This document shows positions 2,164 to 59,424 of a DNA stretch of 64,000 nt, piece by piece. Positions within the stretch are counted from its first letter, which is position 1; every line of letters begins with the position of its first letter. The stretch spans positions 1 through 64,000 of IMG/VR virus record IMGVR_UViG_3300007072_000007; one strand, given 5' to 3'. Source of the DNA: a virus. The position numbers were made by a program, and so were the translations under genes. Below the pieces are notes generated by a model. That model was not told the origin of the DNA and did not search any database. It saw only the letters and a list, made by a program, of their open reading frames with translations.

Positions 2164-2180
2164 ATTTACGCTGCGTAGAA
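2164..2180. promoter_or_regulatory. Degenerate copy of 17-bp palindrome (ATTTACGCTGCGTAGAA)
   Basis: 2 mismatches; just upstream of the RBS of the 2192 gene. Confidence 0.7.
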
Positions 2181-2191
2181 ACGAGGTGTCT

Positions 2192-5100
2192 ATGCCCATC
2201 CGTGAAATGCTTTCGTCCCTGTTCGGTCTTCCGGTGGTTCGCGTCCGCGAGGCTTCGCGGCTGGACGAATCCGACGACTCGCCGGAGTTCATCGCGCGCG
2301 AGGTCGCGTCCGCGACGCTCGACCGGCATAACGACACCGCGAAGTCGGTCGCCGTGCTCGAAGGCGACGCCTACGCCGTGGTCGGCGACCGTATCGCTGT
2401 CCTCATCGAGCCGGACGGGAACATGGTCGCCCAGCGCATCCCCCGTTTCGGTGGCGACTCCGGTTCCGCGCGGGTCGTGTCGGAAGCGTTCACGCGAGAT
2501 GACGCTTACAGCATCGCTTCCGAGTTGGGCAGCATGGCCTCGTTGCGCCGTCCGGTCCGTGTCCAGGTCGTATCCCTTCTGGCGGACTACTTCTCCTATG
2601 CCAGCCTGCCCGGATTCGACCGAAACCAGTTCTTTCGGGACGCGGGTGTTACGCCGTCCCAAGTGGACCGCGCTTCTCACGACGAGGAAGCGGCTGAGGA
2701 AGCGGCTGAGGAAGCGGCCGAAATCTACCGGATGGAGCGCGTCATCCTCGAAACCTGCGACCCGGCGAAGATTCCGCAGGATGCCGCTCAGGAGTTCGAC
2801 GACGCGAAGGCCGCTACCGACGTGGACGGCGCGCTTGCGGCGTTCGCCCGCATCGTGACCGAGGCGGGAAGCATCACCGAAGCGGCGGCCAAGCGGTTTC
2901 TCAACCGCAGCCAGCGGAAGATGCTGGCACGGAACCGCTCTCGGCGCACGGGGGCTGAGCGGGTTCGGGCGCGGGAGCGCAAGCGAAACCGGATTCAACT
3001 CAACCGGCAGGCCCGCATCTACTACCGGAAGCATCGGAATCTCATCAAACGTCGCCGTCGTCGCTATGCCGCGATGGAGGGGGCGCTGGACTCCATCACC
3101 GGCCCCTTGGAGTTCACTCAGGCCCTCTCCGCTTTGCTGGAAGCGGCGCGAATCCCCTACGCCTCGGTCGCCGAGGGAGAGACGGGGGAAGTGCTGGTCC
3201 CGGAGCGGGTTTCGGACACGCTGCTGGAAAACCTCGATGGAACCGCGACGTGGGCCGACGTGCTGCTGGAGTTCGAGAAGCGGTATGACGAAGACGACTA
3301 CCGTGGCGCGCAGGCGGGGGCGGTTCAGGCGGCTGCCAAAACGGGCAAGCCGCATTTCCTGTACGTCACCGTGGACTCGATGGGCCGTGAATCGTTCTAC
3401 GCAAGCGACGAAGACCCCAATACGTTTTCGGCTGGAGGGGAAACGGTCTATCCCATCGCCAAGTTCCTGCCTGACGGTCTTTCCGTGTCCTTCAAGCGGG
3501 TCGGAAACAAGTGGGTCGAGTTCAGTGACGGGTCGAACCAGGCGCGGCGGTTGGCCGCAAGCGTCGGCTTGGAGGAGCAGTACGACGACGATGACGACAG
3601 CGACGACGAGGACAGTGAGGACTACGAAGGGGATGATGACGCAGAAGAAGACGACGAGGAGGATGAACAGGACGAGGCGTTGATCGAGAAGGTCGCGCAG
3701 ATGTACGACGACGGCGTGGATGAGGACGAGATCGCTGAGGTAGTGCGTCGTGCTTACCACGCGGCAGGTTTTGTGTCCGGTAATAATCGTGGGTCCGCAA
3801 CCCGGCGTAATGTCGTGTCGCTGACGGAGGTGTCCGCCCCGAAGTTCACGAAGGTCCACTTCACGGCGGTCGCCAAGATCATCGCCGACCTCGACCTGCC
3901 AATCGAAAAGAAACTCGCGGTCGCCTATGCGTTCGCGGACTACTTCGAGTCCCAGTCTTCGCTGTTCAAGCGCGATCTGTTCGTCAATGCCGTCCGAACC
4001 GGCAGCAAGCCTCGCAAGGATGATCCCCCGACGGACGAGTCCGCCGAGGTGGAGGAGGCGAAGAAAGCCGCCCGGCGCAGGCGCGCTGTGATCGACTACT
4101 GGCGCACCACGGACGGCGGGCACAGGGTCGGGTTCAAGGGTCGTCCGCCCAGGGGCATCCCTACGGCGGGTAATCCGATTGTGCTGGACCTGCTCAACAA
4201 AGGCGGTCGGGCCAAGGGAAAGAGGCGGCGTCGGGACGAGGCGCTCGGTACGCGATTCGACGATGAGGGCGGCGCGGGCAGCGGGCCTATCGGCGAAGCC
4301 CGCCGGACCAAGAATCCCGCCGAGATGTCGAGCGATGAAGTGGACAGCGATACTCGGATGCCGATGAGTGGTCGTGAGATCATCGACACACTGGATTGGG
4401 TACGGACCCGCAGGGCACTGAAGGGGTTTCCCGACACAGTGCATGCGCTGTTCGTAGCGAACGCGATGCGGCTGAAGAGACCGTATAGCAAGAAAGCCGC
4501 CGCCGAATACGGGCTTACCCAAACGCGGGCTGAGTGGGACAAGCAGCAGCACGAGCCTACCGACGAAGCCAAGCGCATCCCGCACGGCATGGTTCCGTGC
4601 AGCGTGAAGACCCACCACTCCGCGTGGCTGGTGACATTCGGCAACGGTAAGGACTTGTTGCTACCGTCCGACTTCGACCAAGCGGCCTTCGCTGCCAACG
4701 CGCTGGGCGGCCTGAAGGCTCCGCGTGACTGGGATGGCACGCCAAGCACCCTCCCCGGCTTTGACGACTTCGACCCCGGAGACATCTACGCCTGCCCGGA
4801 CGAATATCAGGGCATGGCCGAGTCGTCAGGTGGTGTGGTAGTGACCTCCGGTATGAAGGTCCGCGAGGCACAGGACGAAACCGGATGCGCCGAGGATGAG
4901 CAATACATCCACGGTCGGGACATCTGGACCCCCGACTACGAGAACTGGTACATCGGCGACGAGAAGATTCACGAAGGCCCGGCCAGCGGCATCCGTGACG
5001 TGATGGAGAAGCACCTGGCTGACGCCGCCGACAAGGACTTCCACGTTTTCCTGCGCTTCGAGGACGGGACGCACCAGTTGCTCTACGACTTCATCGACGA

Positions 5101-5419
5101 TTCCGTGCAGAACGGAAACGGCAAGCGGCAGGACAACGACGAGGAGGATGACGATGCCCGCGCGTCGAACATCGCGCGCCTACGGCGAGAACGCCCGTGG
5201 CTCGCCCACCTTTCCGACGCCGACCTGCTGGCGGTCGAGTGCGTTCGGTTTCCGAAGGACCGTTTGACGGAGTTCAACGAGGTCGCCAAGCGCGCCGGAG
5301 CGGACGCCGAACAGACCTACGCGACGGTGGAAGGCGACGAAATGGTGGTCGCGTTGCCGAGGCCGGTCCTGAGAAAAGTCCGCGCGTTCTTCAACGGAAA
5401 CGGGGTCGTGTACGGATGA
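2192..5419 (+). CDS. Large multi-segment protein, probable internal head/prohead-core protein
   Basis: ~1075 aa; RBS GAGGTG; alternating acidic and Arg-rich tracts, EEAA x3 repeat at 2684-2719; upstream of protease and capsid genes. Confidence 0.55.
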   Translation: MPIREMLSSLFGLPVVRVREASRLDESDDSPEFIAREVASATLDRHNDTAKSVAVLEGDAYAVVGDRIAVLIEPDGNMVAQRIPRFGGDSGSARVVSEAFTRDDAYSIASELGSMASLRRPVRVQVVSLLADYFSYASLPGFDRNQFFRDAGVTPSQVDRASHDEEAAEEAAEEAAEIYRMERVILETCDPAKIPQDAAQEFDDAKAATDVDGALAAFARIVTEAGSITEAAAKRFLNRSQRKMLARNRSRRTGAERVRARERKRNRIQLNRQARIYYRKHRNLIKRRRRRYAAMEGALDSITGPLEFTQALSALLEAARIPYASVAEGETGEVLVPERVSDTLLENLDGTATWADVLLEFEKRYDEDDYRGAQAGAVQAAAKTGKPHFLYVTVDSMGRESFYASDEDPNTFSAGGETVYPIAKFLPDGLSVSFKRVGNKWVEFSDGSNQARRLAASVGLEEQYDDDDDSDDEDSEDYEGDDDAEEDDEEDEQDEALIEKVAQMYDDGVDEDEIAEVVRRAYHAAGFVSGNNRGSATRRNVVSLTEVSAPKFTKVHFTAVAKIIADLDLPIEKKLAVAYAFADYFESQSSLFKRDLFVNAVRTGSKPRKDDPPTDESAEVEEAKKAARRRRAVIDYWRTTDGGHRVGFKGRPPRGIPTAGNPIVLDLLNKGGRAKGKRRRRDEALGTRFDDEGGAGSGPIGEARRTKNPAEMSSDEVDSDTRMPMSGREIIDTLDWVRTRRALKGFPDTVHALFVANAMRLKRPYSKKAAAEYGLTQTRAEWDKQQHEPTDEAKRIPHGMVPCSVKTHHSAWLVTFGNGKDLLLPSDFDQAAFAANALGGLKAPRDWDGTPSTLPGFDDFDPGDIYACPDEYQGMAESSGGVVVTSGMKVREAQDETGCAEDEQYIHGRDIWTPDYENWYIGDEKIHEGPASGIRDVMEKHLADAADKDFHVFLRFEDGTHQLLYDFIDDSVQNGNGKRQDNDEEDDDARASNIARLRRERPWLAHLSDADLLAVECVRFPKDRLTEFNEVAKRAGADAEQTYATVEGDEMVVALPRPVLRKVRAFFNGNGVVYG

Positions 5420-5432
5420 ACGCTGCGTAAAT
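5416..5432. promoter_or_regulatory. Degenerate palindrome copy (ATGAACGCTGCGTAAAT)
   Basis: 2 mismatches; overlaps the stop codon of the upstream gene. Confidence 0.65.
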
Positions 5433-5494
5433 GGGGTGGACGTTCTCCCCTCGCTGCGGTTATCATGTTCCGGTAGTCGAAACAGGAGTCAAAC

Positions 5495-6520
5495 ATGCCC
5501 ATCGTGATTGAGCACGTCAGCGACGACATTGAGCAGGCCGATGTCGATTCCCTTTACACGCCGGACGGGAACCTGACCGTCGAAGGTCAACTCATCGAGG
5601 ACTTCCTGAACTGGGTGGACTGGTCGCCCATCTTCGAGGATGCCTACTTCGACGCCATCAAGTACCGCACGACTGTTCCTGCCGACGCCATCGACGAGGA
5701 CGGCGAACCGGCGTTCTGGTCCCTGGACGAGAACGACGACGGCGACGGGCTGGTTACGATTGAGAGCATCGTCGGCGAGGACTTGGGCGACTACATCGAC
5801 GAGGACGACCTGTTCGAGTCGTTCTGCTACTACATCGAGAACCTGCCGGAGGACACGCTGGAAGAAAAGACCCGCAAGGCGGTCGGCCTTGCGATGGTCG
5901 GTCTGGAAGAGTCGAAGCGGTTCGGCCCCCGCGCAGTCAAAGAAATCATCGGTGGCGTCACCAAGGTCCGGCCCGCGTCGGCCGGGCCGTACCCCGGCAA
6001 GTTCAAGAACCTGCTGCGCAGGAAGAATCAAGCACCGCTCGCCAAGCGGCAGTTGAAGGCGATGTATTACAAGGGCGTGTACGACTACCGGACCAGGAAA
6101 GACGGTAACAAGCGCGTTGCGGTCGTCACCTACAAGTCGAGCGGCGTTCCGGCGGCGGTGAAGAAGTACAACAAGGTGAAAGCGATGATGCGGCAGAGTT
6201 CCAGCCTGCGGACGGCCCGGAAACTCGCTGGGAAGGACGCGAGCGGGGAGACCAAGGCCAAGGCTGTCGCCGGAAAGGCTACACCGAAGGTCAAGGCTGT
6301 CGCCGGAAAGGCTACACCGAAGGTCAAGAAAACGGCGGTGAAGCCGGTCAAGAAGGTTGCGAAGAAGGGCAAGTCGGTTCGACTGGCCGCGAGCGTCGGC
6401 GGTGAGGGCGGCGCGTACGCGCCTTCGGCTGGCCTGACGGAAGGCGCGTCGCTGGTGGCGGGTGTGTTCGCCCACCGCGCGAGCCAGACCGTGAATCTCC
6501 GCATCGACGAGAATCAGTAG
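5495..6520 (+). CDS. Hypothetical protein with acidic N-half and Lys/Ala-rich histone-H1-like C-half
   Basis: RBS AGGAG; KAVAGKATPKV repeated twice; KKTAVKPVKKVAKKGK. Confidence 0.65.
   Translation: MPIVIEHVSDDIEQADVDSLYTPDGNLTVEGQLIEDFLNWVDWSPIFEDAYFDAIKYRTTVPADAIDEDGEPAFWSLDENDDGDGLVTIESIVGEDLGDYIDEDDLFESFCYYIENLPEDTLEEKTRKAVGLAMVGLEESKRFGPRAVKEIIGGVTKVRPASAGPYPGKFKNLLRRKNQAPLAKRQLKAMYYKGVYDYRTRKDGNKRVAVVTYKSSGVPAAVKKYNKVKAMMRQSSSLRTARKLAGKDASGETKAKAVAGKATPKVKAVAGKATPKVKKTAVKPVKKVAKKGKSVRLAASVGGEGGAYAPSAGLTEGASLVAGVFAHRASQTVNLRIDENQ
6259..6328 (+). repeat. 33-bp perfect tandem duplication encoding KAVAGKATPKV
   Basis: caaggctgtcgccggaaaggctacaccgaaggt x2. Confidence 0.9.
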
Positions 6521-6535
6521 TATGCGAGGCAGTTC

Positions 6536-6874
6536 ATGCCAGACGGTCCCGACATACGCCCCGTCGAGGGTCTGACAGAATCCGCCGAGCAAGCCCTGCG
6601 AACATCCTCAATCTCCTCGGGATTAGCCGCCGTAGCCGCCAGAGCGAAAACCGCTCGGCCTGCGGCGGCTGTTCTTTCCGCCCGCCCGCAGCATCCCCCG
6701 TCCCGACCGCGCACGCTGGCGGATTTCGTCCGTGAGGTTTCAGACGGCTCGGACGATATCCTGGACGGCAGCACGCGCCCCGTTCCGGTGCGCTTCGGCG
6801 ATTCCGGTACGGCGGGCCGTCCGTCGTCCGGTGCGGGCATGGCGGCTGCTGCGCTGCGCAGGTTGCGGACATAG
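6536..6874 (+). CDS. Hypothetical protein
   Basis: 112-aa ORF in operon position with GAGG RBS. Confidence 0.5.
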   Translation: MPDGPDIRPVEGLTESAEQALRTSSISSGLAAVAARAKTARPAAAVLSARPQHPPSRPRTLADFVREVSDGSDDILDGSTRPVPVRFGDSGTAGRPSSGAGMAAAALRRLRT

Positions 6875-6888
6875 AAACGGGAACGAGG

Positions 6889-7317
6889 ATGCCTCTTCTG
6901 GCGGTCGTTGTCGGAAACGTCGATGCCGAAGCGATGGCTCGTCGGCATGGATGCGAGGTCGGGAAGCCCGGCTACCTGAAATATGTTCTCGAATCGAATA
7001 CCATCGTCGCCGTGCGCGATCTGAAGGACGTGGTGAAGGTCGCGGACGAAGCAAGGCGTTGTGGATTCACGTTGGGCGTGTTCGGGGCTGGTACGTTCCT
7101 TCAGGAGCAACTACGTTCGTTCTTCGCAACCCCGGCCGGTCCGGGCGAACGTCGAAAGAACAGGACTCTGCCGTCGGGGTCTGCGGCCCGCCGCAGACCT
7201 GATGACCGGGCGGATAATCGACATGAGGCTCACGGTTCCCCAGCCAGTCCGAATCGTCGCTTCCGGCGCGGTCGCTCTCCATTCGACCAGCCCGCTCCCC
7301 GGCACGGTCGGGGTTAG
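6889..7317 (+). CDS. Hypothetical protein
   Basis: 142-aa ORF; 3' end overlaps the next gene. Confidence 0.4.
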   Translation: MPLLAVVVGNVDAEAMARRHGCEVGKPGYLKYVLESNTIVAVRDLKDVVKVADEARRCGFTLGVFGAGTFLQEQLRSFFATPAGPGERRKNRTLPSGSAARRRPDDRADNRHEAHGSPASPNRRFRRGRSPFDQPAPRHGRG

Positions 7318-8347
7318 CCTCGCCCGTCGGCTGGAGCGCGGGTCCATCGGCCTCGCCCAACTGGTTCGCGGGGCCGAGTACGTCGCCTGCCGGTTCCGGC
7401 GTGTGCAGGAAGCCCGAAACCTTCTCTACACGCCGGAAACGTCGGCTCTGCTTCGGTCGTGGGCGATGCACGGCGGGGACGCTGGCGCGGACTGGTTCCT
7501 GCGGGAGCGGAAAGCCGCGTCCGACGCCGGGGTGCTTCCCCCTGCCCCCCTGCTTTCCGTGTTCACGCTTCAACCGGAGGACATCTACAAGCGGTTCAAT
7601 CTCGGCGCGTGGAGGTTCGAGTATGGCCTGACTCCAGCCAAAGCGGCGCGTTTCGTCGAGGATTATGCGGAGGCGACAGGGAGGCAACTCGACTACCGCC
7701 GCGCTTTCGGGGACGCCGCTCCGGCCGTCATCAACGCCGTCTATCGCAGGACGGTCGGGATGTCGCCCATTCAGGCGGCCTATCACGCCATGCTGAGGCG
7801 GGGGTACGGTCAAGGGATGGACAGCGCGCTGCGAAACGGCTGGAGGACTCAGGAGGACGGGCTGGGGGACTTCCGCTGGCCCGACGTGGTAGCGTACTTC
7901 GCCGTCGCGTCGGAACAGCCGGGTTTTCTCAACGACCTGCACCAGCGCATGCCGCCGATTCCCGACGACGGGGATGGGGTCGGCCGCACGTCCCGCTGGC
8001 CCGCGCCCGTCCGTGCGATCCTTTCGAGATTCCACCCGTCCGGCGCGCTGTATGACCGCTACGCGAGCGTCGCTCCGCCCGTGATGGCCCTGCTGCGGAA
8101 GGTCGTGGATGGCGAGCGTGTTTCGTGGGCCGAGGCGGACGCGGTTCTCGCCCGCATCGCCGCGTATCAGCGGGAGAAGACCGTGGACGCAGGATTCGGG
8201 TCTTATCGCATCCTCGCCGAGTTCGTAGCCGCCGGGGACTGGTTTTCGCTCCATGCGTCCATCCCTCTCGATTCGGAGATGCGGGTCGCTTTCCTGCGGT
8301 TCGCGCAGTACCTCGACCGGATGATGCCATTTACGCAGCGTAAATAG
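7223..8347 (+). CDS. Hypothetical head-region protein
   Basis: N-terminal 'GTVGVSLARRL...SWAMHGGDAGADW' resembles a 'WGGDAG' module of phage head-associated proteins; start may be 7202. Confidence 0.55.
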   Translation: MRLTVPQPVRIVASGAVALHSTSPLPGTVGVSLARRLERGSIGLAQLVRGAEYVACRFRRVQEARNLLYTPETSALLRSWAMHGGDAGADWFLRERKAASDAGVLPPAPLLSVFTLQPEDIYKRFNLGAWRFEYGLTPAKAARFVEDYAEATGRQLDYRRAFGDAAPAVINAVYRRTVGMSPIQAAYHAMLRRGYGQGMDSALRNGWRTQEDGLGDFRWPDVVAYFAVASEQPGFLNDLHQRMPPIPDDGDGVGRTSRWPAPVRAILSRFHPSGALYDRYASVAPPVMALLRKVVDGERVSWAEADAVLARIAAYQREKTVDAGFGSYRILAEFVAAGDWFSLHASIPLDSEMRVAFLRFAQYLDRMMPFTQRK

Positions 8348-8373
8348 GGTCGCGGGATTTACGCAGCGTAAAT
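8329..8373. repeat. Two perfect copies of ATTTACGCAGCGTAAAT (8329-8345, 8357-8373)
   Basis: Read directly from sequence. Confidence 0.95.
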
Positions 8374-8455
8374 CCGTGTTGTAAGGCACCCAGCGCGTCG
8401 GGTATATTCACGTTGCCCGCACTACGGTTGCTGGGTGTCTTTACAGGAGTCAGTC

Positions 8456-8800
8456 ATGCCGTTGCAAACCGCACAGGTCGATGCGTTTCCGTTGACCGCT
8501 TCTCCCGCTCCGGTCTTCGAGATTCGGAGAAACGAGAAGGTCGATTTCGTCTTCGAGAATCCGTCCGAGACGGACTTCACCGTTACGGTGCAGTTCGGGA
8601 CCAACTCGACTACGTTCTCGAACAGCACGTCGGCGAACGGGACGGCTGTTGTCAATCAGACAGTCGTTGCCAAAGGTCGGTACAACGTGACGCTTGTGCC
8701 GATGAAAGACCAGACGCACATCAAAATCGTCGTCTCGTCCGGCGGCTATGGGCGTTTCACGGTGCGACCCGGCAGCGCGTTGATTCCGCTGAAGTTCTAA
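8456..8800 (+). CDS. Small beta-rich protein, possible head decoration/structural
   Basis: RBS AGGAG at 8445; ATG at 8456. Confidence 0.6.
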   Translation: MPLQTAQVDAFPLTASPAPVFEIRRNEKVDFVFENPSETDFTVTVQFGTNSTTFSNSTSANGTAVVNQTVVAKGRYNVTLVPMKDQTHIKIVVSSGGYGRFTVRPGSALIPLKF

Positions 8801-8828
8801 GCGTCCCCGCAGTCGGCAGGAGGATGCC

Positions 8829-9260
8829 ATGAATCGCGGAACTTACCGTGTTCTCACGCACTACTTCGCCATCGAGAAAATCCCGCAGCAGGCTGACGAT
8901 ACCTTCGCCATCATCAAGCGGGACGGGTTCACCAACCACGTCGGGATTCTGTACGGGGCGGTGTTCAACGACGGGTCCGGTGCGTTCACGTTCTCAGTGC
9001 AGGAATCAAGCGATAATGGCAATGCCGACCCCTACGCGAACGTGACCATCCGAAGCGGAGGGGCTGGCGTTTCCTCGGTTGCCGTGGTCGGCGGCGGTAT
9101 CGTCGAGTTCGTCGTCGAGTGGGTGGCGTTGTTCCAAACGTCGAACTACCTGCGATTCCGTGCCGTGCCCGCGAGCGGAGCGGGCGGGCCGAAGGGGGTT
9201 CTGGCCTTGTCCCACGCCGTCGGCGCGGTGGAGTTCAGAACCGTGTTGGGGAACCCATGA
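8829..9260 (+). CDS. Small beta-rich protein, possible structural
   Basis: RBS AGGAGG; 'FTFSVQESSDNG' pattern. Confidence 0.6.
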   Translation: MNRGTYRVLTHYFAIEKIPQQADDTFAIIKRDGFTNHVGILYGAVFNDGSGAFTFSVQESSDNGNADPYANVTIRSGGAGVSSVAVVGGGIVEFVVEWVALFQTSNYLRFRAVPASGAGGPKGVLALSHAVGAVEFRTVLGNP

Positions 9261-9814
9261 GGATCGACGAAGCCATCACGCCGGGACTCATCAAGGCCGT
9301 TTCCCGAAACGGCCTGCGCCGTCTTTGCGATTGCGGGTTTCCGCTTCCGAAGTATCCCGGACGCTACCCGAAGTCCTGCCCCGTCTGCGGTGAGCCTTTC
9401 GAGCCGCACGACCGCCCTCCGCCAGAAACCGACGACACGGAGCCTAACGTCGAGGAACCTGACGCCGCGCCCGTCGGCGAGTCGTTCGACGAGGCGGCGC
9501 GTAGCCGGTTCGGAAAGCCGCTGGACAAGGACAAGAGGCGGAAGTTCATCGCCGTCGCCAGTCGGCTCGGTCTGGATGGCAACGGAAGGTTCGAGACGGT
9601 CGGGCATGTGATGGCAAGTCTCAACTCCGCCCTGAAGGAAATCGGTTTCTACCCCGACCTGACGCTGTACGCGAGCACGGCGAACAAGGAGGAGGCGGTC
9701 CTGAGCGTTCCGATTCGGTCGGACGAGGAGCCTGAGACGGACTGGAAATCGGACGTGCGGCTGTCCTGGGCCAAGTTGGGCGACAAGTACGAGGCGGTCG
9801 CCTACCTGACATGA
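9257..9814 (+). CDS. Hypothetical protein with N-terminal Zn ribbon
   Basis: CDCG...CPVCG; ATGA overlap. Confidence 0.6.
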   Translation: MRIDEAITPGLIKAVSRNGLRRLCDCGFPLPKYPGRYPKSCPVCGEPFEPHDRPPPETDDTEPNVEEPDAAPVGESFDEAARSRFGKPLDKDKRRKFIAVASRLGLDGNGRFETVGHVMASLNSALKEIGFYPDLTLYASTANKEEAVLSVPIRSDEEPETDWKSDVRLSWAKLGDKYEAVAYLT

Positions 9815-10137
9815 CAACACGACGGAACAATCCTCCCCTGCCTGCCGTGCTGCCGGGCCGGTTCTTCGTGCTGGAATACGAGCCGGAGTCCGAGTGCTAC
9901 TACCTGACGGTCGATGACGACGACCGTTCAAGTTTTCGGCTGGGGCATGACGTGCAGGCCGTCATGGACCGGATGAGAGGGTGGGGGGTGTATCGGATCG
10001 GGTGCGAGGGACTGGACAAGGCCAAGGCGTTCGGGGTGGTGCAGGTCATACCGGAGGAGAATCGCGTCGTGCTCATCAATCCGCCGAACCCGACGCCTGC
10101 GTATGTTTTCGATGACGAGGAAAACGGCGATGACTGA
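9811..10137 (+). CDS. Hypothetical protein
   Basis: ATGA coupling; 108 aa. Confidence 0.55.
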   Translation: MTTRRNNPPLPAVLPGRFFVLEYEPESECYYLTVDDDDRSSFRLGHDVQAVMDRMRGWGVYRIGCEGLDKAKAFGVVQVIPEENRVVLINPPNPTPAYVFDDEENGDD

Positions 10138-29650: not shown

Positions 29651-29667
29651 ATTTACGCAGCGTAAAT
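29651..29667. repeat. Perfect palindrome ATTTACGCAGCGTAAAT
   Basis: Intergenic between the two lysis-type genes. Confidence 0.95.
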
Positions 29668-31220: not shown

Positions 31221-31229
31221 TACCATACG

Positions 31230-33813: not shown

Positions 33814-33829
33814 TTTACGCTGCGTAAAT
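33813..33829. repeat. Perfect palindrome ATTTACGCTGCGTAAAT
   Basis: Between the recQ stop and the next start codon. Confidence 0.95.
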
Positions 33830-37984: not shown

Positions 37985-38077
37985 TTTACGCAGCGTAAAT
38001 AGGGCCGCGCGTATCTCCTGTCGGCTTGATTTACGCAGCGTAAATAGGGCCGCGCGTGGCTTCCCGGTCAGGCTTGA
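37935..38077. repeat. Cluster of three perfect palindromes (37935, 37984, 38029) within interleaved direct repeats
   Basis: 35-bp ggcttgatttacgcagcgtaaatagggccgcgcgt x2 and 22-bp gtggcttcccggtcaggcttga x2. Confidence 0.95.
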
Positions 38078-38101
38078 CTTCTGTTGCGTTTGTGCTACTG
38101 T
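38074..38101 (+). promoter_or_regulatory. Possible promoter of the helicase-primase operon
   Basis: TTGACT-16-TACTGT with TGn extension. Confidence 0.5.
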
Positions 38102-42085: not shown

Positions 42086-42224
42086 GGTAACGCCGTGGGT
42101 GCTGGCGGACGAGAACGGAACGCGATACGGCATGATGACGGCGGAGCAGGCGTTGGCCGAAAACCAGCGGCTCGCAGACCAGAATGCGCCGGGCGGGCGG
42201 TGGGAGCCGCGCATCGACTCGTAG
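42078..42224 (+). CDS. Small hypothetical protein
   Basis: 48-aa ORF coupled to its neighbours. Confidence 0.35.
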   Translation: MSEVTPWVLADENGTRYGMMTAEQALAENQRLADQNAPGGRWEPRIDS

Positions 42225-46896: not shown

Positions 46897-46913
46897 ATTT
46901 ACGCAGCGTAAAT
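46897..46913. repeat. Perfect palindrome ATTTACGCAGCGTAAAT
   Basis: Immediately after the SSB stop codon. Confidence 0.95.
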
Positions 46914-46942
46914 CGGTCCGGCATCGTGCCGGACCGATTTAC
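46908..46942 (+). terminator. 16-bp hairpin overlapping the palindrome (terminator-like)
   Basis: gtaaatcggtccggca-TCG-tgccggaccgatttac. Confidence 0.6.
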
Positions 46943-48373: not shown

Positions 48374-48414
48374 TTGACATGCCGTAAATGCTGGGGTATT
48401 ATCGCAGCGTAAAT
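48374..48414 (+). promoter_or_regulatory. Promoter of the parB-like gene overlapped by degenerate palindrome copies
   Basis: TTGACA(48374)-17-TATTAT(48397); ATTATCGCAGCGTAAAT at 48398-48414 and CTTGACATGCCGTAAAT at 48373-48389. Confidence 0.85.
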
Positions 48415-48453: not shown

Positions 48454-49527
48454 ATGTCCGAGACGTTTTCACTGGGTAAGCGGAAGAACAACGCCGCGCT
48501 CGCCGTCGTTCCCATCTCGTCCGTCGAGATCAAGGAAGGCTACAACCCCCGCGCCGACCTCGGCGACCTGACCGAACTTTCGGCCAGCATCGCAAAGGAG
48601 GGGATTATCGAACCCCTCATCGTGCGCCCGCAGTCAGGGAAGGGGGCCAAAGAGGGGCACTACTGGATCGTCGCGGGGGAGCGCAGGTACAGGGCGGCGA
48701 AGAAGGCGGGTGTCGAGTCTGTGCCGTGCGTCGTTCGCACTGACCTGTCCGATGACACGGACGCCTTGTGCGTCAGTGTCGCCGAGAACAGCGAGGAGGG
48801 GCGCACGCCGTTGACGGCCATCGAACTCGGTAGGACGTTCGCGCGGCTGGCCAAGACCGGCTTGAGTCCGAACGCCATTGCCGCGCGGACGGCGACCAAT
48901 CATCAGAAGGTCCGCCGCGCCCTGGCCATCGTTACCGCGTCTCAGGAGGTCCAGCAGCGCGTCGCGTCGGGCGACCTGGGCATCATGGCCGCGAGCGAAC
49001 TCGCTACGCTGAAGCCGAAGGAGCAGGCGAAGGTCGTGTCCGCGTTGCCGAGCGGCGCGACGGCTCAGGACGTGAAGCGGGCCGTGCGCGAGGTGCTGGA
49101 TTCGACGCCATCGGCCCGCCGCCCGTCGAAGGCGGGCCGGGCCAAGACCGTCGCCAGCCCGGTATGGCGGGGGGCGCGCGAGAAGCAGCGGCTCATCAAC
49201 GCGCTGTCCTACTCCTTCCTTCACCCGGACCCCGACGAGAACTTCGACACGCTTTCCGGTGCGCTGGGCGTCCTGCTTTGGGAGCGCCAGAACCTCGATA
49301 CGCCTGTTTTCCCGCTCCTGGTTGGGAAGGACGGTCGCGTGATTGCCGACCCGCCCGAAGACGCGACGGCGGCCGAGAAGAAGGTCTATAAGGCGACCTA
49401 CTACCTCGTCGCCAAGTTCGCCGAGGACCATGCGAAGTCGGTCAACGCGGACGCCTCCAAGGACGCGACGGACGATTCCGATGAGGCTCTTTCGGACGAC
49501 GGTGCGGACGAAGGCGCGGACGAGTAG
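48454..49527 (+). CDS. parB: ParB/Spo0J/KorB-family protein
   Basis: NPR, LSASIAKEGIIEPLIVR, IVAGERRYRAAK (box II), AEN..R, central HTH 'LSPNAIAARTATNHQKVRRAL'. Confidence 0.9.
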   Translation: MSETFSLGKRKNNAALAVVPISSVEIKEGYNPRADLGDLTELSASIAKEGIIEPLIVRPQSGKGAKEGHYWIVAGERRYRAAKKAGVESVPCVVRTDLSDDTDALCVSVAENSEEGRTPLTAIELGRTFARLAKTGLSPNAIAARTATNHQKVRRALAIVTASQEVQQRVASGDLGIMAASELATLKPKEQAKVVSALPSGATAQDVKRAVREVLDSTPSARRPSKAGRAKTVASPVWRGAREKQRLINALSYSFLHPDPDENFDTLSGALGVLLWERQNLDTPVFPLLVGKDGRVIADPPEDATAAEKKVYKATYYLVAKFAEDHAKSVNADASKDATDDSDEALSDDGADEGADE

Positions 49528-51454: not shown

Positions 51455-52441
51455 ATGTCGCCGTGTCCGGTGATTGTGGACGCTCCCAGCGTCATCAAGC
51501 GGGCCATATTCGCGTCCGTTATGGACGACTTTCGCGCCGGGATATGGACGGGGGGTATTTACGGGGCTACGGCTATGCTTGCGAGCGTGCTGTCGCATGT
51601 GCCTCCCCCGCGATGCACGGCCGGTCCCGTGGTGGCCATGTTCGACGGGGGTATCCCGCCGCACAGGAAGGCGGCGATACCGGGCTACAAGTCGGGCCGC
51701 GAGGAGCGGCGTCGCTTGCTGACGGAGGACCAGCATGAAAAGGCGATGGCGCAGGTGGGCGAGACCCGAAAGTTCTGGGAGACGCTGGGCGTCCAGTGTG
51801 CCGCCTACGGGGATTACGAGGCCGACGATGCGGTGGCGGCGATGGTCCGGCTTACGGTGTCGATGGGGTGTCGTCCGATTGTGGTCAGCGGGGACCGCGA
51901 CCTGTATCAGACGGTCAATATGGGCGCGTCGATGTGGGACGTGGCCGCGCGCCGGCTGGTGGATGCCGTGTCCTTCAAGTCTTTGGTCGGGGTGCTGCCG
52001 AACCAGTATGTCGTTTACCGTGCCCTCGTGGGCGACTCGTCGGATTCAATCCGGGGGGTTCGCGGTGTAGGCCCCAAGCGGGCCGTCGGTCTGGTCCAGG
52101 AGGCGGCCGGCACACATGGTTTGCCGTCTGTGATGCTTTCCCGCATCGTCAAGCATTTACGCAGCGTAAATCCACGTTTGGAGTGGCAGCAGGCTGTTAT
52201 CGACGACGAGGCGCGGTTGAATAAGGTTATTGTCGGCATCGACCTGTCCGGTTCGTTTTCGGACTACGTTTCACTGCGCCGTCTGGTCCTGTCGTCGTCG
52301 AAGCCAGCCCGAAGCGGGTACGAGTCGGCCTGTCGGAAGTACCGATTCTTTCGTTTTCTGGATGAGGCGTCGGTTTATCTGGAGCCGTTCGTTCGGGCGG
52401 CTACGGTTTCGATTCCGCTGGAGGAGGGTTTGCCATGCTGA
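51455..52441 (+). CDS. 5'-3' exonuclease/flap endonuclease (PolI 5' domain/T4 RNase H-like)
   Basis: YKSGR, EADD, SGDRDL, GDSSDSI.GV.GVGPK. Confidence 0.9.
   Translation: MSPCPVIVDAPSVIKRAIFASVMDDFRAGIWTGGIYGATAMLASVLSHVPPPRCTAGPVVAMFDGGIPPHRKAAIPGYKSGREERRRLLTEDQHEKAMAQVGETRKFWETLGVQCAAYGDYEADDAVAAMVRLTVSMGCRPIVVSGDRDLYQTVNMGASMWDVAARRLVDAVSFKSLVGVLPNQYVVYRALVGDSSDSIRGVRGVGPKRAVGLVQEAAGTHGLPSVMLSRIVKHLRSVNPRLEWQQAVIDDEARLNKVIVGIDLSGSFSDYVSLRRLVLSSSKPARSGYESACRKYRFFRFLDEASVYLEPFVRAATVSIPLEEGLPC
52155..52171. repeat. Perfect palindrome inside the exonuclease gene
   Basis: ATTTACGCAGCGTAAAT, read as HLRSVN. Confidence 0.95.
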
Positions 52442-54080: not shown

Positions 54081-55920
54081 GGTGGAGTATCGCAACTTCG
54101 GTCCGTTCGAGTCTGCTACGGTCGATTTCGACCGTCCCGGTCTGACCGTCATCGAGGGGGTGATGCGAGGCCGGACCGGCGCATCGTCGAACGGGTCGGG
54201 CAAGTCTTTTCTGCTGGACGGCGTTGCATGGGCCTTGTTCGGTCGGTGTCTGCGCGAGCGGTATGCCGGGGATGACGTAGTGCGTCACGGTGCGGATGGG
54301 GCGAGGGTGGACGTGGTTCTGAAAACTCCGTCCGGTGATGTCGTGGTTTCCAGAACACGGGGGGGCAGGGGCGGCAACACAACGCGGGTTCTGGTGGGCG
54401 GGAAGGACGTGTCCCGCGGGACGGCGGCGGAAACGGATGCGATGCTGGTCCAGAGCGTCGTCGGGATGGATTACATCGGGTTCTGCAATACGACCGCGTT
54501 CGGGGCGCGGGAGGACGTGAGGGGGTTCTTCTCCGCTACGGATTCGCAGCGGAAGGAACTGCTCGATTCGCTGCTGGGGCTGGATGTGTGGGTGCGCGCC
54601 GAGGGTGCGGCTATCGAGGAGCGGAACAAGGTTCGTGAGCGGAAAACGCTGTTGGCGGCGTCGGTTCTCCGCTGTCGAGAGGCCGTCGGGCTGGCGCGGC
54701 AGGCGGTCCAGCAGGCCGAGGAGTCGGTCGAAACGCTACGGGCATCTGGAACCGACCTGCTTGAGGAGACCGCCAGGAAGGCGGAAAAGGCTGTCGCCAG
54801 GGCTACGGCCGATGAAAAGGAAGCGCGCGACGCGATGCAGCGTTGCGTCCAGGATGAGCAGGAGTCTGTGTGCCGTTACGAGGAGGCGGCGAAACGGTTT
54901 CAGCGCGAACAGGCCCGGCTGTCCGAAATCTACGCGCGCTTGCGGGGCGAGAGGGATGTGGCCAGAGCCAACGTCGAGTCGGTGCGGTCCCGCCTGAAGG
55001 CGGCGGAGTCGATGGGGGCGGTGTGCGACAAGTGCGGACAGCCGATTCGCGGGGAGCATCGGGAGTCGTCCGTAGCGGCGTTGCGGCGGGAACTGAAGTT
55101 GGCGACGGAAGCGGAGCATCGGGCGGAGGCTGCGCTGAAGGCGGCGGAGGCGGAACGGGATGCGCTGCGCCCCCCCGCCAGGCCGGTGTCCAACGTTCAG
55201 GCGTATTTACAGCGCGTAAATGCGGCACAGGCTGAGCGGGTGCGTGCCGAGCGGGTTCGCGCCGAGGCGGCCGACGCGCTACGGACGGCTCAGGCTCGTC
55301 TGGATGCTGCGGTCGGGCGTCTCGAAGCGGCGCGTCGTGAGTTGGAGAGCCGTCTGGACATGCTGGGGGAGGCCGAGCGGGACGAGGCCGCCGCTACGAG
55401 TGCCCTCGCAGTCGCGGACTTCTGGGTGGCTGGTTTCGGGGCGAAGGGCGTCAGGAGCCACATCATTGAGTCTGCGATGGCTGGAATAAACGAGGACGCG
55501 ACGCGATATGTTCAGCGTCTTGCGGGGGCGGGAGCCTACGTTCAGTTGCGGCCCACGACCGACCTGAAAACGAGGAGCGGGGCGGCGGAACGCATCAGCG
55601 TTGCCGCCCATATTCCGAACTGCACGGACACCTACTACGGCGCGAGCAAGGGTCAGAAAAAGCGGTTCGACATCGCTCTGTTGCTGGCGTTGCGGGATTA
55701 CGTCGTCCGCAGGACTCCCGCGTGCCTCGATCAGTTGTTTCTGGACGAGGCGTTCGACGGGCTGGACCGCGCCGGTTGCGAAGCCGTGGTTGACCTGCTT
55801 TCCGATATGTCGAAGCAGATTCCCGTTGTGCTGGTCACTCACGACGACGCGCTGCGGAGTGCCGGAGACAGGACGATTCGAGTGATTCACGACGGGACTA
55901 CGGCGAAAGTAGTTGCATGA
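54067..55920 (+). CDS. SbcC/Rad50 (gp46-like) ATPase
   Basis: NGSGKS, coiled coils with CDKC zinc hook, SKGQ signature, LDEAFDGLD. Confidence 0.9.
   Translation: MRIGKVEYRNFGPFESATVDFDRPGLTVIEGVMRGRTGASSNGSGKSFLLDGVAWALFGRCLRERYAGDDVVRHGADGARVDVVLKTPSGDVVVSRTRGGRGGNTTRVLVGGKDVSRGTAAETDAMLVQSVVGMDYIGFCNTTAFGAREDVRGFFSATDSQRKELLDSLLGLDVWVRAEGAAIEERNKVRERKTLLAASVLRCREAVGLARQAVQQAEESVETLRASGTDLLEETARKAEKAVARATADEKEARDAMQRCVQDEQESVCRYEEAAKRFQREQARLSEIYARLRGERDVARANVESVRSRLKAAESMGAVCDKCGQPIRGEHRESSVAALRRELKLATEAEHRAEAALKAAEAERDALRPPARPVSNVQAYLQRVNAAQAERVRAERVRAEAADALRTAQARLDAAVGRLEAARRELESRLDMLGEAERDEAAATSALAVADFWVAGFGAKGVRSHIIESAMAGINEDATRYVQRLAGAGAYVQLRPTTDLKTRSGAAERISVAAHIPNCTDTYYGASKGQKKRFDIALLLALRDYVVRRTPACLDQLFLDEAFDGLDRAGCEAVVDLLSDMSKQIPVVLVTHDDALRSAGDRTIRVIHDGTTAKVVA
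55205..55221. repeat. Variant palindrome ATTTACAGCGCGTAAAT inside sbcC
   Basis: Same variant core as the site at 11625. Confidence 0.8.
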
Positions 55921-56775: not shown

Positions 56776-57383
56776 CGCGGGAGGAGCGGGAACTTCTGCA
56801 CTACGCGATGGCGTATGGGCCGTACGCGCTGGTCGAGGACAGGGGGATGTCCGCGCCGGATGTCGATGCGTTCCTTTCCCGTCCTGATGTGCGGGACGAG
56901 CGGAAGAGGCTGGAGGACTTGCTGGCCGACGCTTCCGCTGCCGAGGCCCGCCGTCGCTACTTCGCCAGGCGCGCCGTCGGGCGGATGGTTCCGCAGGCGG
57001 TGCAGGTCATTTCCGATGCGCTGCGCGGGAACGAGTACGTCAGGGATTCGCACGGAAATCTGATGCTCGACCAGAACGGAAACTTCATCGTCCGCGAGCC
57101 GATGCCGACGAAGGTCCAGGTGGACGCCGCGAAGTTTGTTCTGTCCGACGCCGGAATCGGCGGAAAAGACGATGTGGGGCAGGTCGTGCTTGAGCATCGG
57201 GTTTCGATGCCGATTCAGATAACCTACCCGGAGGACGCCAGAAGCGACGAGGAGAAGGCCATGTCGCGGGAGCGCGTCCGCAACGCGATTATGCGCCTTG
57301 CCGCCCCTCTGCTGGAGGCGCATCGGGAGATTGACCGGCGGGTTGTGAGAAGGCGACATGGCCGCAAACCGAGGAAAGCGTAA
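56772..57383 (+). CDS. Possible terminase small subunit
   Basis: Directly upstream of and overlapping terL; helical. Confidence 0.45.
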   Translation: MTREERELLHYAMAYGPYALVEDRGMSAPDVDAFLSRPDVRDERKRLEDLLADASAAEARRRYFARRAVGRMVPQAVQVISDALRGNEYVRDSHGNLMLDQNGNFIVREPMPTKVQVDAAKFVLSDAGIGGKDDVGQVVLEHRVSMPIQITYPEDARSDEEKAMSRERVRNAIMRLAAPLLEAHREIDRRVVRRRHGRKPRKA

Positions 57384-59424
57384 CGCTACCGAAGAGTATC
57401 AGCGTTTGTTCGACCGTGTGGCCGAGGAGTTGGTTCACGGCCACCGCGACCTGTTCGATTCGCTCCGGCCGGCCGAGCGGAAACTGGTCATCGACTACAT
57501 GGCGGAAGTCCTTGCGGACGGGAGGCTGGACAACAGCATTTCCAGCGTTCTGTGGGAGTTGGATTACGTTCGCCGTCCGGTGGGGATCGAGGAGTTCATC
57601 CGTTCTGACGATTATCTGGGTCGGACTTGCGCCCAGTTCGATGCCCAATGGGTGCGCGACCTTCAGGCCGTATTCGCCCCAGGCAGTTCCATCTACGTCT
57701 GGGTGATGCGGGGGGCCATCGGCATCGGAAAGACCGTCGTGGCCATGGCCGCCATCGCGTACACGATTTACAGGATGTCGTGTCTGCGCGACCCGGCGAG
57801 GTATTACGGGCTGTTGGCGAACTCGCTCATCGTGTTCGGAATCTACTCGATCACGAAGCGGCAGGTTGCCGACGCCGGTTACTGGAAACTGAGGGAATAC
57901 ATCGACAACAGCCGGTACTTCCAGGACCACTACCCCCGCGATCAGAAACTAGAAACGAAGATTGTCTTTCAGCGGCAGCGGGTGCAGGTGGTTCCCGGTT
58001 CAAGGCAGTTGCACGTCCTCGGACTGGACTTGTTCAGCGTGGCGATGGACGAGGCGAACTTCATGTCGCATCGCGTGGACAAGGAAACCGGAAAGACCAT
58101 CGGGCAAGCCTACGAGTTGTTCAACGCCACCAGCGCGAGAATCATGTCGCGGTTCATGCGGCCCGGCGGGGTCATTCCGGGGCTGATGCTGCTCATGTCG
58201 TCCGAGCAGTCTCAGACCGACTTTCTGGCGAACTACCTCGCGTCCGCGTCGAAGAACCAGTACCGGCCCGGTCAGCGCGGTCAGGTCACGGAGCATCTTT
58301 ACGTTTCGCACTACGCACTGTGGGAGATTCGGTCCCACCGTTACTCCCGCCGGTATTTCACGGTCGAGGTGGGGGACCGCGTGTTCCCGTCGCGCATCCT
58401 GGGGGACTCGGATACGCCGCGCCCGGGCGCGCAGACGGTGCAGGTTCCGATGGACTTCTACTCCAGGTTTGTCGAGGACGTGGACCAGCACCTTCGGGAC
58501 ATCGCGGGCGTCGCCACCGTCAACGTGTCGCCGTTTATCCGCGACCCCCGCGTGGTTCACGATGCCGTTGACCGCAGGCTGTCGCATCCGTTCACGAAAA
58601 CCGAGATTACGCTTTCGACGGATGAAGCCACAACGCTCCCCGACTATTTCCTGTTGCGCAAGGTCGCCAAGGTCCACGGCGGCGCGTGGGTTCCGAAGCG
58701 TCATCCTGGGTCGTTTCGCTACGTTCATCTGGACCTGGCATTGACGGGGGACTGCCTCGGTATCGGCATGGTTCATCCGGCCGGGTGGCGCAGGGTGGAG
58801 ACGGCGCGGAGCGACGGGACGGTGATGGTCAGGGCCATGCCGCTCATCGAAGTCGATTTTGTGCTACGGGTCCGTCCCCCAGTGTCGGGGGAAATCGACA
58901 TCTCGAAGGCGACCGCGTTCGTCGAGTACCTCCGCAGCATCTTTCCCATCCGTGTCGTATCGTTCGACGAGTATCAGTCGCGCCACTCGATTCAGATATT
59001 GAGGAAGGCGGGGTTCGATGCGAAGGTTACGTCGGTGGACAGGGACGACAAGGCGTACCTGGGCCTGCGGTCGGCGTTCTACGAGCGTCGGATGGCGATG
59101 TACGCCTATGAGCCGTTGATTGACGAACTGCTGGACCTCCAGCGGGACGTGCGCTCGTCCAAGGTGGACCATCCTGAGCGGGCGTCCAAAGGCGGTAAGG
59201 GAAGCAAGGACGTAGCCGACGGTCTGTGCGGCGCTGTGTGGGACTGCATGGAGGACGAGGCGGCATGGCGCGAGGTCGTGCCCCTGCTCGACGGTGGGGA
59301 GGATTTACGCAGCGTAAATCGGGGAGGGGGACCGGAGCCTTCCGTGCCCGCATCGACGACGGTAACTCCGGCAGGGCGTCGCATTGACTGGGACCGCTTG
59401 GTGAGCAATCTGGGAAGAAGGTAG
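57358..59424 (+). CDS. Terminase large subunit
   Basis: GAIGIGKT Walker A, VAMDE Walker B, HLDLA, KVDHP, KDVADG; precedes the portal gene. Confidence 0.88.
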   Translation: MAANRGKRNATEEYQRLFDRVAEELVHGHRDLFDSLRPAERKLVIDYMAEVLADGRLDNSISSVLWELDYVRRPVGIEEFIRSDDYLGRTCAQFDAQWVRDLQAVFAPGSSIYVWVMRGAIGIGKTVVAMAAIAYTIYRMSCLRDPARYYGLLANSLIVFGIYSITKRQVADAGYWKLREYIDNSRYFQDHYPRDQKLETKIVFQRQRVQVVPGSRQLHVLGLDLFSVAMDEANFMSHRVDKETGKTIGQAYELFNATSARIMSRFMRPGGVIPGLMLLMSSEQSQTDFLANYLASASKNQYRPGQRGQVTEHLYVSHYALWEIRSHRYSRRYFTVEVGDRVFPSRILGDSDTPRPGAQTVQVPMDFYSRFVEDVDQHLRDIAGVATVNVSPFIRDPRVVHDAVDRRLSHPFTKTEITLSTDEATTLPDYFLLRKVAKVHGGAWVPKRHPGSFRYVHLDLALTGDCLGIGMVHPAGWRRVETARSDGTVMVRAMPLIEVDFVLRVRPPVSGEIDISKATAFVEYLRSIFPIRVVSFDEYQSRHSIQILRKAGFDAKVTSVDRDDKAYLGLRSAFYERRMAMYAYEPLIDELLDLQRDVRSSKVDHPERASKGGKGSKDVADGLCGAVWDCMEDEAAWREVVPLLDGGEDLRSVNRGGGPEPSVPASTTVTPAGRRIDWDRLVSNLGRR
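59303..59319. repeat. Perfect palindrome inside the terminase gene
   Basis: ATTTACGCAGCGTAAAT, read as DLRSVN. Confidence 0.95.

Follow-up and report, generated by a model that had tools for sequence, protein, structure and literature searches.

The window analysed here is the first 64 kb (64,000 nucleotides) of a 74,244-bp viral record, IMGVR_UViG_3300007072_000007 (G000), from an uncultured myophage, and it carries both a 17-bp palindrome, ATTTACGCWGCGTAAAT, repeated across the genome, and a gene for an orphan ParB-family protein. The record is ~53% complete (CheckV), has a GC content of 63%, and in its gene model 74 of the 75 genes lie on the + strand. Its virion genes include those for a gp23-type major capsid protein, a T4-type prohead protease and a gp20-type portal, together with tail tube, baseplate and tape-measure proteins. 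The replication set comprises an intein-bearing DEAD helicase, a UvsW-like helicase, a DnaB-like helicase and a primase, along with a fusion of uracil-DNA glycosylase (UDG) and PolA, a gp32-like single-stranded DNA-binding protein (SSB), a RecA/UvsX-like protein and ParB; an N6/N4 DNA methylase, a RecD-like helicase, FEN, Mre11/Rad50 and an HU-like protein are also encoded. Among 50,697 cultured or deposited phage records there was no nucleotide match and no close protein match.

The palindromic repeat is real and non-random. Twelve perfect copies lie in the window, exactly where the original prediction had placed them, against 0.00 expected from dinucleotide-preserving shuffles, and 17 matches are found when up to 3 mismatches to ATTTACGCWGCGTAAAT are allowed (0.04 expected). 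The full record holds 14 perfect copies, the two beyond the window being at 65110 and 69452, as well as a variant at 71848, and the half-site 7-mers CGTAAAT/ATTTACG number 38 against ~2.6 expected. The weaker entries of that prediction, listed as variants or half-sites, are a mixture: those at 2164, 5416, 43122, 48398 and 55205 are near-full sites and that at 11625 is TTTTACAGCGCGTAAAA, while those at 35480, 36121, 39999, 45074 and 48373 amount only to half-sites or weak variants. A second variant type, ATTTAC-AGCGC-GTAAAT, also occurs among the weaker entries. Nine of the 15 sites with perfect arms are intergenic in a record of which only ~6-7% is non-coding (binomial P = 6e-8). Many copies begin at the preceding stop codon or within a few bases of it, and every copy that falls in a gene is translated in the same frame, to give (D/H/Y)LRSVN. 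Sites are met every 3-9 kb across both the replication and the structural modules, and the spacing of their clusters is more even than chance in this genome (P = 0.004-0.006). Outside one triple cluster the copies have only the 17 bp in common, and not their flanks. The exact 17-mer was not found in other IMG/VR records, and in 596 Gb of prokaryote genomes (~186,000 species genomes) it gave 33 single hits, none of them repeated and none actinobacterial.

The first perfect copies in the window form a pair 28 bp apart; that at 8329-8345 lies over the last codons and stop of gene 7202-8347, and that at 8357-8373 is intergenic, with a weak sigma70-like promoter, TTGTAA-18-TATATT (8379-8408), beginning 5 bp downstream. 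Another pair, 27 bp apart and with T at the centre, follows the tail-tube gene (16811-17443), its first member (17453-17469) being intergenic and its second (17480-17496) lying upstream of a baseplate-hub-like gene (17543-18388) and followed by a GC-rich hairpin. Genes 29071-29643 and 29679-30152 are separated by 35 bp, mostly taken up by the copy at 29651-29667, and another with a central T (33813-33829) begins at the final stop-codon base of the intein-bearing DEAD helicase gene (31339-33813). Three perfect copies then fall within 111 bp (region 37935-38101; spacing 49 and 45 bp), interleaved with direct repeats of 22-35 bp (ggcttg..., agggccgcgcg... and gtggcttcccggtcaggcttg). The first (37935-37951) lies inside the 3' end of gene 37214-37984, where it encodes DLRSVN, the second (37984-38000) is immediately preceded by ggcttg, part of a direct repeat, and the third (38029-38045) is followed 28 bp further on by TTGACT-16-TACTGT and the DnaB-like helicase gene. 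This triple cluster could be an origin or the main nucleation site. Directly past the stop of the SSB-like gene (45652-46896) is the copy at 46897-46913, whose right arm forms a hairpin (46905-46942; -33.5 kcal/mol, z = -4.2) with a 10-bp GC stem and an ATTTAC half-site (46937). The last two perfect copies of the window are within genes, at 52155-52171 in the FEN (5'-3' exonuclease) gene (51455-52441; HLRSVN) and at 59303-59319 in the 3' part of a terminase-large-subunit-like gene (57358-59424; DLRSVN), 117 nt before the portal gene.

Among the variants, one with two mismatches, ATTTACGCTGCGTAGAA, at 2164-2180 lies between an open reading frame (ORF) with an XRE-type helix-turn-helix (HTH; 1908-2132) and gene 2192-5419, and another with two mismatches (5416-5432) lies over the stop of the latter gene, upstream of gene 5495-6520, with a weak promoter-like site (5437-5466) beginning 5 bp downstream. 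The variant TTTTACAGCGCGTAAAA (11625-11641) adjoins the Shine-Dalgarno sequence of the major capsid gene (11652-13199). Two further variants are inside genes: ATTTACGCGACGTAAAT (43122-43138) in the UDG-PolA gene, where it reads YLRDVN, and ATTTACAGCGCGTAAAT (55205-55221) in the Rad50-like gene. Finally, a degenerate copy, ATTATCGCAGCGTAAAT, at 48398-48414 lies over the -10 box and start region of the parB promoter and is a candidate autoregulatory operator. This promoter is sigma70-like (TTGACA-17-TATTAT, 11/12 matches; 48374-48402, + strand) and is flanked by the half-sites ATTTAC (48348) and GTAAAT (48384). A degenerate site on the -10 box with half-sites round the -35 box is the classic layout of negative autoregulation. 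Within the 29-49 kb stretch there are seven sigma70-like promoter matches, all on the + strand, and only that of parB is overlapped by a motif copy; textbook terminators are found at 31229 and 41837. The structural region is without strong promoters; two weak ones begin 5 bp past the sites at 5416 and 8357.

The parB gene (48454-49527, + strand) encodes 357 aa, with a CTPase-fold N-terminal domain (GERRYRA and EN box), an HTH domain and a clade-specific helical C-terminal domain (~237-340). The protein is a member of the ParB/Spo0J family with the ParB fold and HTH, as had been proposed, and matches ParB_N (PF02195) at 7.7e-19 and HTH_ParB (PF17762) at 4e-5. In an alignment of 22 sequences GERRYRA, NPR and E111/N112 are invariant, as are the residues of the cytidine triphosphate (CTP) motifs, R33, G75, R77, R78, E111 and N112. 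The HTH aligns with those of Spo0J and Caulobacter ParB, and in an AlphaFold2 (AF2) model the domain has a predicted local distance difference test score (pLDDT) of >90. For the model as a whole the pLDDT is 85, the best Foldseek matches are ParB, Noc and KorB, and the best rigid-body overlay is with the KorB-KorA complex (8qa9_B, TM 0.73). By sequence, the similarity is greater to Spo0J (1vz0, E 4e-18) than to KorB (E 4e-6). The proposed likeness to KorB and its OB operator stands as regards dispersed copies, including one on the gene's own promoter, while the protein itself is closer in sequence to chromosomal ParB and Noc. Its nearest named relatives are from actinobacteria and Gordonia phages. 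The C-terminal domain (residues 237-340) is modelled as three helices, pLDDT ~77-94.

Relatives were recovered by alignment-based IMG/VR searches with ParB and the capsid protein; a single-protein capsid query found none, a capsid-alignment profile search of genome contigs gave no match, a ParB-alignment profile search of metagenome contigs returned only generic ParBs among the matches listed, and the ParB C-terminal-domain alignment alone was too divergent for a locus search. Thirteen related IMG/VR records, each of 22-156 kb, were taken in full. Capsid identity is ~46-53% among the records compared directly, and ~120 capsid homologues lie on long metagenome contigs. The relatives share the one-strand gene layout and a syntenic module of UvsW, DnaB, primase, DUF932, PolA, SSB, RecA, ParB, FEN, Mre11, Rad50, TerL and portal. 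In all nine records containing the interval, ParB lies between the RecA-like and FEN genes, and it is the sole recognisable DNA-binding protein common to the clade besides the HU-like protein. A DNA methylase adjoins parB in G000 and G002.

Two peculiarities of the clade ParBs may be recorded here. Their N-termini (e.g. P0123-P0128, G005, G015) have a conserved peptide, hGVxhxGD(V/I)KKGGT, ~25 residues before box I and often past a lysine/alanine/proline-rich tail, which is reduced to SLGKRKNN in the ParB of the window; it resembles, without matching, the ParA-activating LG(K/R)GL and could be a docking peptide for another partner. In G014 (IMGVR_UViG_3300008516_000402, original coordinates 8990-11134) there are two tandem ParB-family matches with one in-frame TAG each, which could reflect duplication and pseudogenisation, or stop-codon reassignment.

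Each of the 13 related records carries its own over-represented palindrome, of the common design NNAC-N5-GTNN. G002 has TTGACGCWGCGTCAA (26 copies in 98 kb), G001 (IMGVR_UViG_3300029922_000014) has (A/C)TTGACAYSRTGTCAAT (51 copies in 150 kb), and G006 has CCAGTGACAnnnTGTCACTGG (17 copies). The version in G010 is TTGAC-N5-GTCAA (20 copies), in G011 TGAC-N5-GTCA (24 copies in 28 kb), in G007 GGTGAC-N5-GTCACC (10 copies) and in G009 CTGGAC-N5-GTCCAG (7 copies). Smaller numbers are seen for TAACACWGTGTTA in G004 and CCAACAAWTTGTTGG in G008 (5 copies each) and for TTGACACWGTGTCAA in L006 (5 copies in 7.5 kb), while G005 and G003 both have TGACAnnnTGTCA (12 and 7 copies, respectively). Arms and flanks are constant within a genome and different between genomes. 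Sites in the relatives are overwhelmingly intergenic (P down to 3e-29), and the upstream stop codon is often the TGA of TGAC. Where the centre is asymmetric it occurs in both orientations against a single direction of transcription (24 vs 15 in G001, 10 vs 7 in G006 and 5 vs 5 in G005), which indicates that the site is read as symmetric duplex DNA and not as RNA or a promoter element. Clusters of sites are spaced more evenly than chance in G000, G001, G002, G006 and G011, with a coefficient of variation of the gaps of 0.40-0.50 against ~0.9-1.0 expected from random positions and from random gene boundaries; in G001 and G002 this reaches P < 2e-4. Arms fixed within a genome, symmetric divergence between genomes and the use of both orientations together point to a dimeric, phage-encoded and co-evolving binder of duplex DNA, and the even spacing of the clusters fits distributed loading sites.

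Dispersed parS-like palindromes are also seen on unrelated ParB-bearing viral contigs. On L056, GTTTCGCATGCGAAAC occurs five times over 7 kb (2747-9503), with one copy ~130 bp upstream of its ParB; L072 and L075 carry the palindrome GTTTCTACAGAAAC; and L036 has four clustered copies of GTCCAACCCATTGGAC at 1171-1260. Such sites may be common alongside phage ParBs.

The position of the sites relative to genes gives a further link to ParB. Among 37 core orthologue groups, parB is the sole gene with a site ≤130 nt upstream in all five large genomes, and the site has been kept there although its sequence has changed between genomes. When upstream regions were instead ranked without thresholds by a position weight matrix (PWM), trained with parB's own site excluded, that of parB came 9/74, 10/80, 6/175, 11/126 and 9/156 (Fisher P = 0.004), i.e. 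in the top 3-12% of genes in every genome. Besides parB, only gene 5495-6520 keeps such an upstream site. Its product, a 341-aa protein that is acidic in its N-terminal half and rich in lysine in its C-terminal half, has no Pfam or PHROGs match, and its AF2 model (pLDDT 46) is too poor to use. The sites also differ between genomes in their relation to promoters. In G010 the left arm, TTGACA, is the -35 box of good promoters (TTGACA-17-TATAAT/TATACT), and one class of sites in G001 (oriented positions e.g. 32, 37436, 38925, 42421, 48329, 142311 and 147348) has a TAYGMT -10-like box at a constant distance of 7 nt downstream, beyond which come a ggtcc...ggacc hairpin, itself conserved, and a Shine-Dalgarno sequence. 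Such sites have the look of early promoters forming one family, with a 5' untranslated region (UTR) in common and the -35 box within the palindrome. In the genome of the window the arms have drifted to TTTACG, and the sites lie apart from TTGACA promoters except at parB.

No ParA accompanies this ParB. The earlier statement to that effect holds for the G000 record, incomplete as it is, and neither PF13614 nor PF01656 was found in G000 or in the complete or near-complete relatives G001, G004 and G006; a tyrosine integrase was likewise lacking from the same four records. The motif by which ParB proteins activate ParA has been defined as (L/F/I)G(K/R)G(L/F/I) (PMC12704722), and 0 of 17 clade ParBs contain it. 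Because ParA is missing, this is not a ParABS partition system, and partition without ParA is unlikely; evenly spaced genome-wide sites without ParA suggest a different function. Segregation in a carrier state, which had been offered as one possible role, finds no support, as no ParA, integrase or plasmid replication functions were found. Long-range silencing, offered alongside it, stays a candidate role, with the parB promoter the sole one in the window that a site overlaps.

On balance, we favour the reading in which the 17-bp palindrome is the cognate loading or operator site of the phage's own orphan ParB, comparable with parS, OB or the Noc-binding site (NBS) and serving a KorB/Noc-like protein. 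The link between palindrome and ParB had been proposed from the window itself, and it has since gained comparative support from the clade-wide pairing of the two, the site upstream of parB and the way in which the residue at one specificity position tracks the motif. In Caulobacter ParB, positions 173, 179, 184 and 201 set specificity for parS versus NBS (PMC7383237). Aligned to that protein, the recognition helix of the window ParB reads T-N-H-Q-K-V-R-R. The equivalent of R173 is His in G000 and G002, both of which have an ACGC-W-GCGT core, and Pro, Ile, Val or Asp in genomes with ACAC/ACAY cores; in the ParB tree, where support is weak, G000 and G002 are not sisters.

In the mechanism that we infer, as regards the binder, its use of CTP and sliding, and the biological output, ParB would bind as a dimer, its HTH domain reading the symmetric duplex. 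Since its CTP-binding motifs are intact, ParB would probably close into a CTP-dependent clamp and then slide off the site. With sites every 3-9 kb over both modules, loading would take place along the whole genome and not at one centromere, and the weakened copy on the parB -10 box would give negative autoregulation. The output may be KorB-like control of transcription, or the coating and organisation of replicating phage DNA. Some strong promoters of G010 and G001, probably early ones, have the left arm as their -35 hexamer, and these could be shut off by ParB once the replication module produces it. In the genome of the window, direct repression and a coating, organising, roadblock or long-distance role are equally likely. 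It is also conceivable, more tentatively, that throughout this clade of virulent-looking gp23-capsid myophages (74-156 kb) an orphan ParB-CTP clamp, recruited to the replication module and loaded at evenly spaced, lineage-specific palindromes, coats or organises the replicating DNA and times transcription, with early promoters of the G010 and G001 kind being switched off as ParB builds up. Such a clamp would stand to phages as KorB or Noc does to plasmids or chromosomes, and it might also be a functional analogue of the coupling between sliding clamp and late transcription in T4.

Several points weigh against assigning the palindrome to ParB. The evidence joining them is comparative throughout, and there are 0 ParB-less relatives among the records with the RecA-FEN interval; as every testable relative has ParB, co-occurrence cannot discriminate. 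The covariation of residue and motif comes from two genomes with His. Mismatch thresholds for the upstream-site count were chosen per genome, the threshold-free version reaches only P = 0.004, and the genomes are related, so that the upstream-site tests are not independent. G006 has no site upstream of parB, and one 65 bp downstream. Orthologues of gene 5495-6520 have a site within ~100 nt upstream in all four genomes that possess the gene, and a conserved site position is thus not unique to parB. Spacing is not significantly even in G005 and G010, and the ParB-positive fragments L003/L253, L257 and L002 show no clear motif within ~20 kb. The C-terminal domain matches no Pfam family or solved chain, and a role for it in dimerisation or clamp closure is putative. 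Lastly, the core of the G000 palindrome, TTACGCWGCGTAA, fits the consensus for the actinomycete regulator BldD, as do those of most relatives (TGAC-N5-GTCA, TAAC-N5-GTTA).

This fit gives substance to an explanation that we regard as unlikely, though the least so of the four rivals: that the sites are operators of a dimeric, non-ParB regulator with an XRE/BldD-type HTH, most plausibly a host factor and, if the hosts are actinomycetes, BldD acting with cyclic di-GMP (c-di-GMP). The developmental or second-messenger state of the host would then read, silence or time the phage genome, or the phage would titrate the factor. WhiB-family genes are common in actinophages, whereas none was found in nine records of the clade. 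The BldD box is 5'-TNAC(N)5GTNA-3', with TCACGCTGCGTGA as the canonical crystallised box (PMC4151990), and the core in the window, TTACGCTGCGTAA, differs from this only at two N positions; variation between phages likewise falls largely on N positions of the box. High GC, TTGACA/TAnnnT promoters and ParB kin in actinobacteria and Gordonia phages are compatible with actinomycete hosts. However, the N positions and the 2-4 bases flanking the 13-bp box are invariant within each phage and different between phages, a pattern not predicted by a shared host protein with a degenerate box, and G009 (GGAC..GTCC) and G008/G014 (CAAC..GTTG) break the rule of T1 and A13. Nor is the exact 17-mer repeated in any of the ~186,000 species genomes, where it has no actinobacterial hit, and a BldD-type factor gives no reason for the constant presence of a site at parB and at no other gene. 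The clade has no conserved XRE-type protein, the XRE hits being unrelated ORFs or HNH homing endonucleases. The XRE-HTH ORF at 1908-2132 (74 aa), which the original prediction had named as an alternative binder, has no counterpart in the relatives and no similarity to BldD, and was rejected as a clade-wide binder.

A phage-encoded DNA-binding protein of another, unrecognised kind could also bind the sites, with ParB engaged in something unrelated such as activating a DNA-modifying enzyme, but this seems improbable. Several conserved core proteins are without Pfam or PHROG assignment, candidates being the 256-aa protein of 37214-37984, the 341-aa product of 5495-6520 (whose upstream site is kept in 4/4 genomes) and the proteins at 45172 and 62511; in none of these is an HTH or any other domain for specific DNA binding seen. 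There are documented phage ParB homologues that do something other than bind sites, and one without an obvious DNA-binding domain activates a thymine dioxygenase (PMC13229309), whereas the ParB of the window has a confident ParB-type HTH; the methylase beside parB in G000 and G002 is missing from most relatives. It is very unlikely that the palindrome acts without a dedicated binder, as a transcription signal in itself (as part of a promoter, as a terminator or as an RNA hairpin that affects processing or stability). Its place in intergenic gaps, often right at a stop codon, would suit this, as would the coincidence of TTGACA with the -35 box in G010 and G001, the fixed -10-like box and 5' UTR hairpin of G001 and the ability of paired copies to fold together. 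Against it, the folding of a single copy does not exceed that of shuffled sequence (z = -0.29) and no U-tract comes after it, arms are invariant within the genome with no compensatory changes, both orientations of the centre are used, and seven copies are inside genes; Rfam finds no family in the window. A promoter role in the window is ruled out by the lack of a -10 box at a fixed distance from the sites, and sigma70-like promoters and canonical terminators are found elsewhere. We give very little credence, finally, to the spread through the genome of a repeat that is selfish or linked to recombination, for instance a homing-endonuclease target or a miniature mobile palindrome. In its favour are the identity of the copies, the 22-35-bp direct repeats in which the triple cluster sits and the HNH/NUMOD-type homing endonucleases of relatives. 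Yet only 17 bp are common to copies outside that cluster, the same architecture persists with diverged sequence across genomes with only ~50% capsid identity, spacing is even and in-gene copies are kept in one reading frame, all of which argues for selection on function and not for recent spread.

Some other features of these genomes deserve mention. The DEAD/DEAH helicase gene (31339-33813) has Hint and intein-splicing domain matches at ~residues 146-325, between the helicase motifs, which indicates an intein insertion. In the family A DNA polymerase (42095-45082) an N-terminal domain of the uracil-DNA-glycosylase superfamily is fused at residues 109-246, and the fusion is kept in relatives. 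Past the window, 66862-70983 encodes a 1373-aa protein with an S-adenosylmethionine-lyase-like segment and a zeta-toxin/AAA_33 kinase-like C-terminus; the perfect palindrome copy at 69452 lies inside this gene. Gene 62511-62897 is flanked by two strong extended -10 promoters (62476-62504 and 62912-62940; TAGACA/TTGACA-17-TGnTATCAT), and its product, for which an Atlas search gave no usable match, has a 44-residue core 58-75% identical in relatives. HNH/NUMOD-like homing endonucleases with a C-terminal HTH are found in G005 (30760-31398), G007 (30678-31349) and G009 (10806-11357; all oriented coordinates), at differing insertion places.

The known ParB-CTP clamps act in the partition of chromosomes and plasmids, and some (KorB, Noc, VirB and BisD) have lately emerged as regulators. 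Many orphan ParBs have been found in phages in a survey, with roles largely unknown (PMC12704722), and the present case offers a testable pairing of one orphan ParB with a defined 17-mer, with natural specificity variants in a dozen related genomes. If ParB is the binder, this would be a lytic phage whose genome is organised or scheduled by means of a clamp-loading system, and the clade would supply ready-made orthogonal ParB/site pairs for DNA labelling. If a BldD-type factor binds instead, it would be unusual in its own right for a phage genome to hold so many sites of a developmental regulator belonging to the host.

Among known systems, the closest by sequence is chromosomal ParB/Spo0J with parS (TGTTTCAC-GTGAAACA), with which the phage protein shares GERRxRA, the EN box and the HTH, and the site the half-site outline TTT.C.C. 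The phage, however, has no ParA and no LG(K/R)GL ParA-binding motif, the C-terminal domain is new, and the site has one additional central bp and is found genome-wide, not clustered near an origin. Noc and the NBS of Bacillus chromosomes provide a precedent for an orphan ParB paralogue without ParA and with many scattered palindromic sites, and Noc is among the top sequence and fold matches of the phage ParB. Noc tethers DNA to the membrane and thereby blocks division; its site sequence is different and its C-terminal domain unrelated. KorB of the IncP-1 plasmid RK2, whose OB core is TTTAGCGGCTAAA (PMC11790492), is likewise a ParB-family CTPase with an HTH and an odd-length palindrome of TTTA...TAAA outline, dispersed in many copies over the replicon and regulating its own operon, as the site on the parB promoter may do in the phage. 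The phage site nevertheless has 17 bp and another sequence, the proteins are only weakly similar (E 4e-6), there is no IncC/ParA, and no clamp-locking partner like KorA or TrbA was identified in a search that was not exhaustive. Moreover, the replicon is a virulent-looking phage and not a plasmid, and, parB aside, the sites in the window are not on promoters. The phage ParB is not a KorB orthologue, and its likeness to KorB/OB or Noc/NBS lies in the many dispersed sites and the lack of a centromere role.

The nearest phage precedent is N15, whose SopB is a phage-encoded ParB-family protein with several separate palindromic sites, IR1-4 (PMC7205306). N15 differs as a temperate plasmid-prophage that has SopA, needs partition and has four sites, whereas the present system counts 14 to 51 sites, with neither ParA nor any sign of lysogeny. 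With the BldD box of Streptomyces the palindrome shares a 9-bp centre, ACGCTGCGT, identical to the canonical box, but BldD is a host XRE-type protein dimerised by c-di-GMP, and the phage sites are far more uniform than BldD boxes and longer (17-21 bp), with two lineages breaking the consensus. The stoperators of mycobacteriophage L5 are dozens of short repressor sites in small intergenic gaps genome-wide, including late operons; they are asymmetric 13-mers in one orientation, bound by the integration-linked immunity repressor of a temperate phage. The present sites resemble them in being short and lying in small intergenic gaps throughout a phage genome, and differ in being palindromic, in both orientations and without a repressor or integrase module. 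What is new here is a set of clade-wide palindromes, each record having its own version, paired with an orphan ParB.

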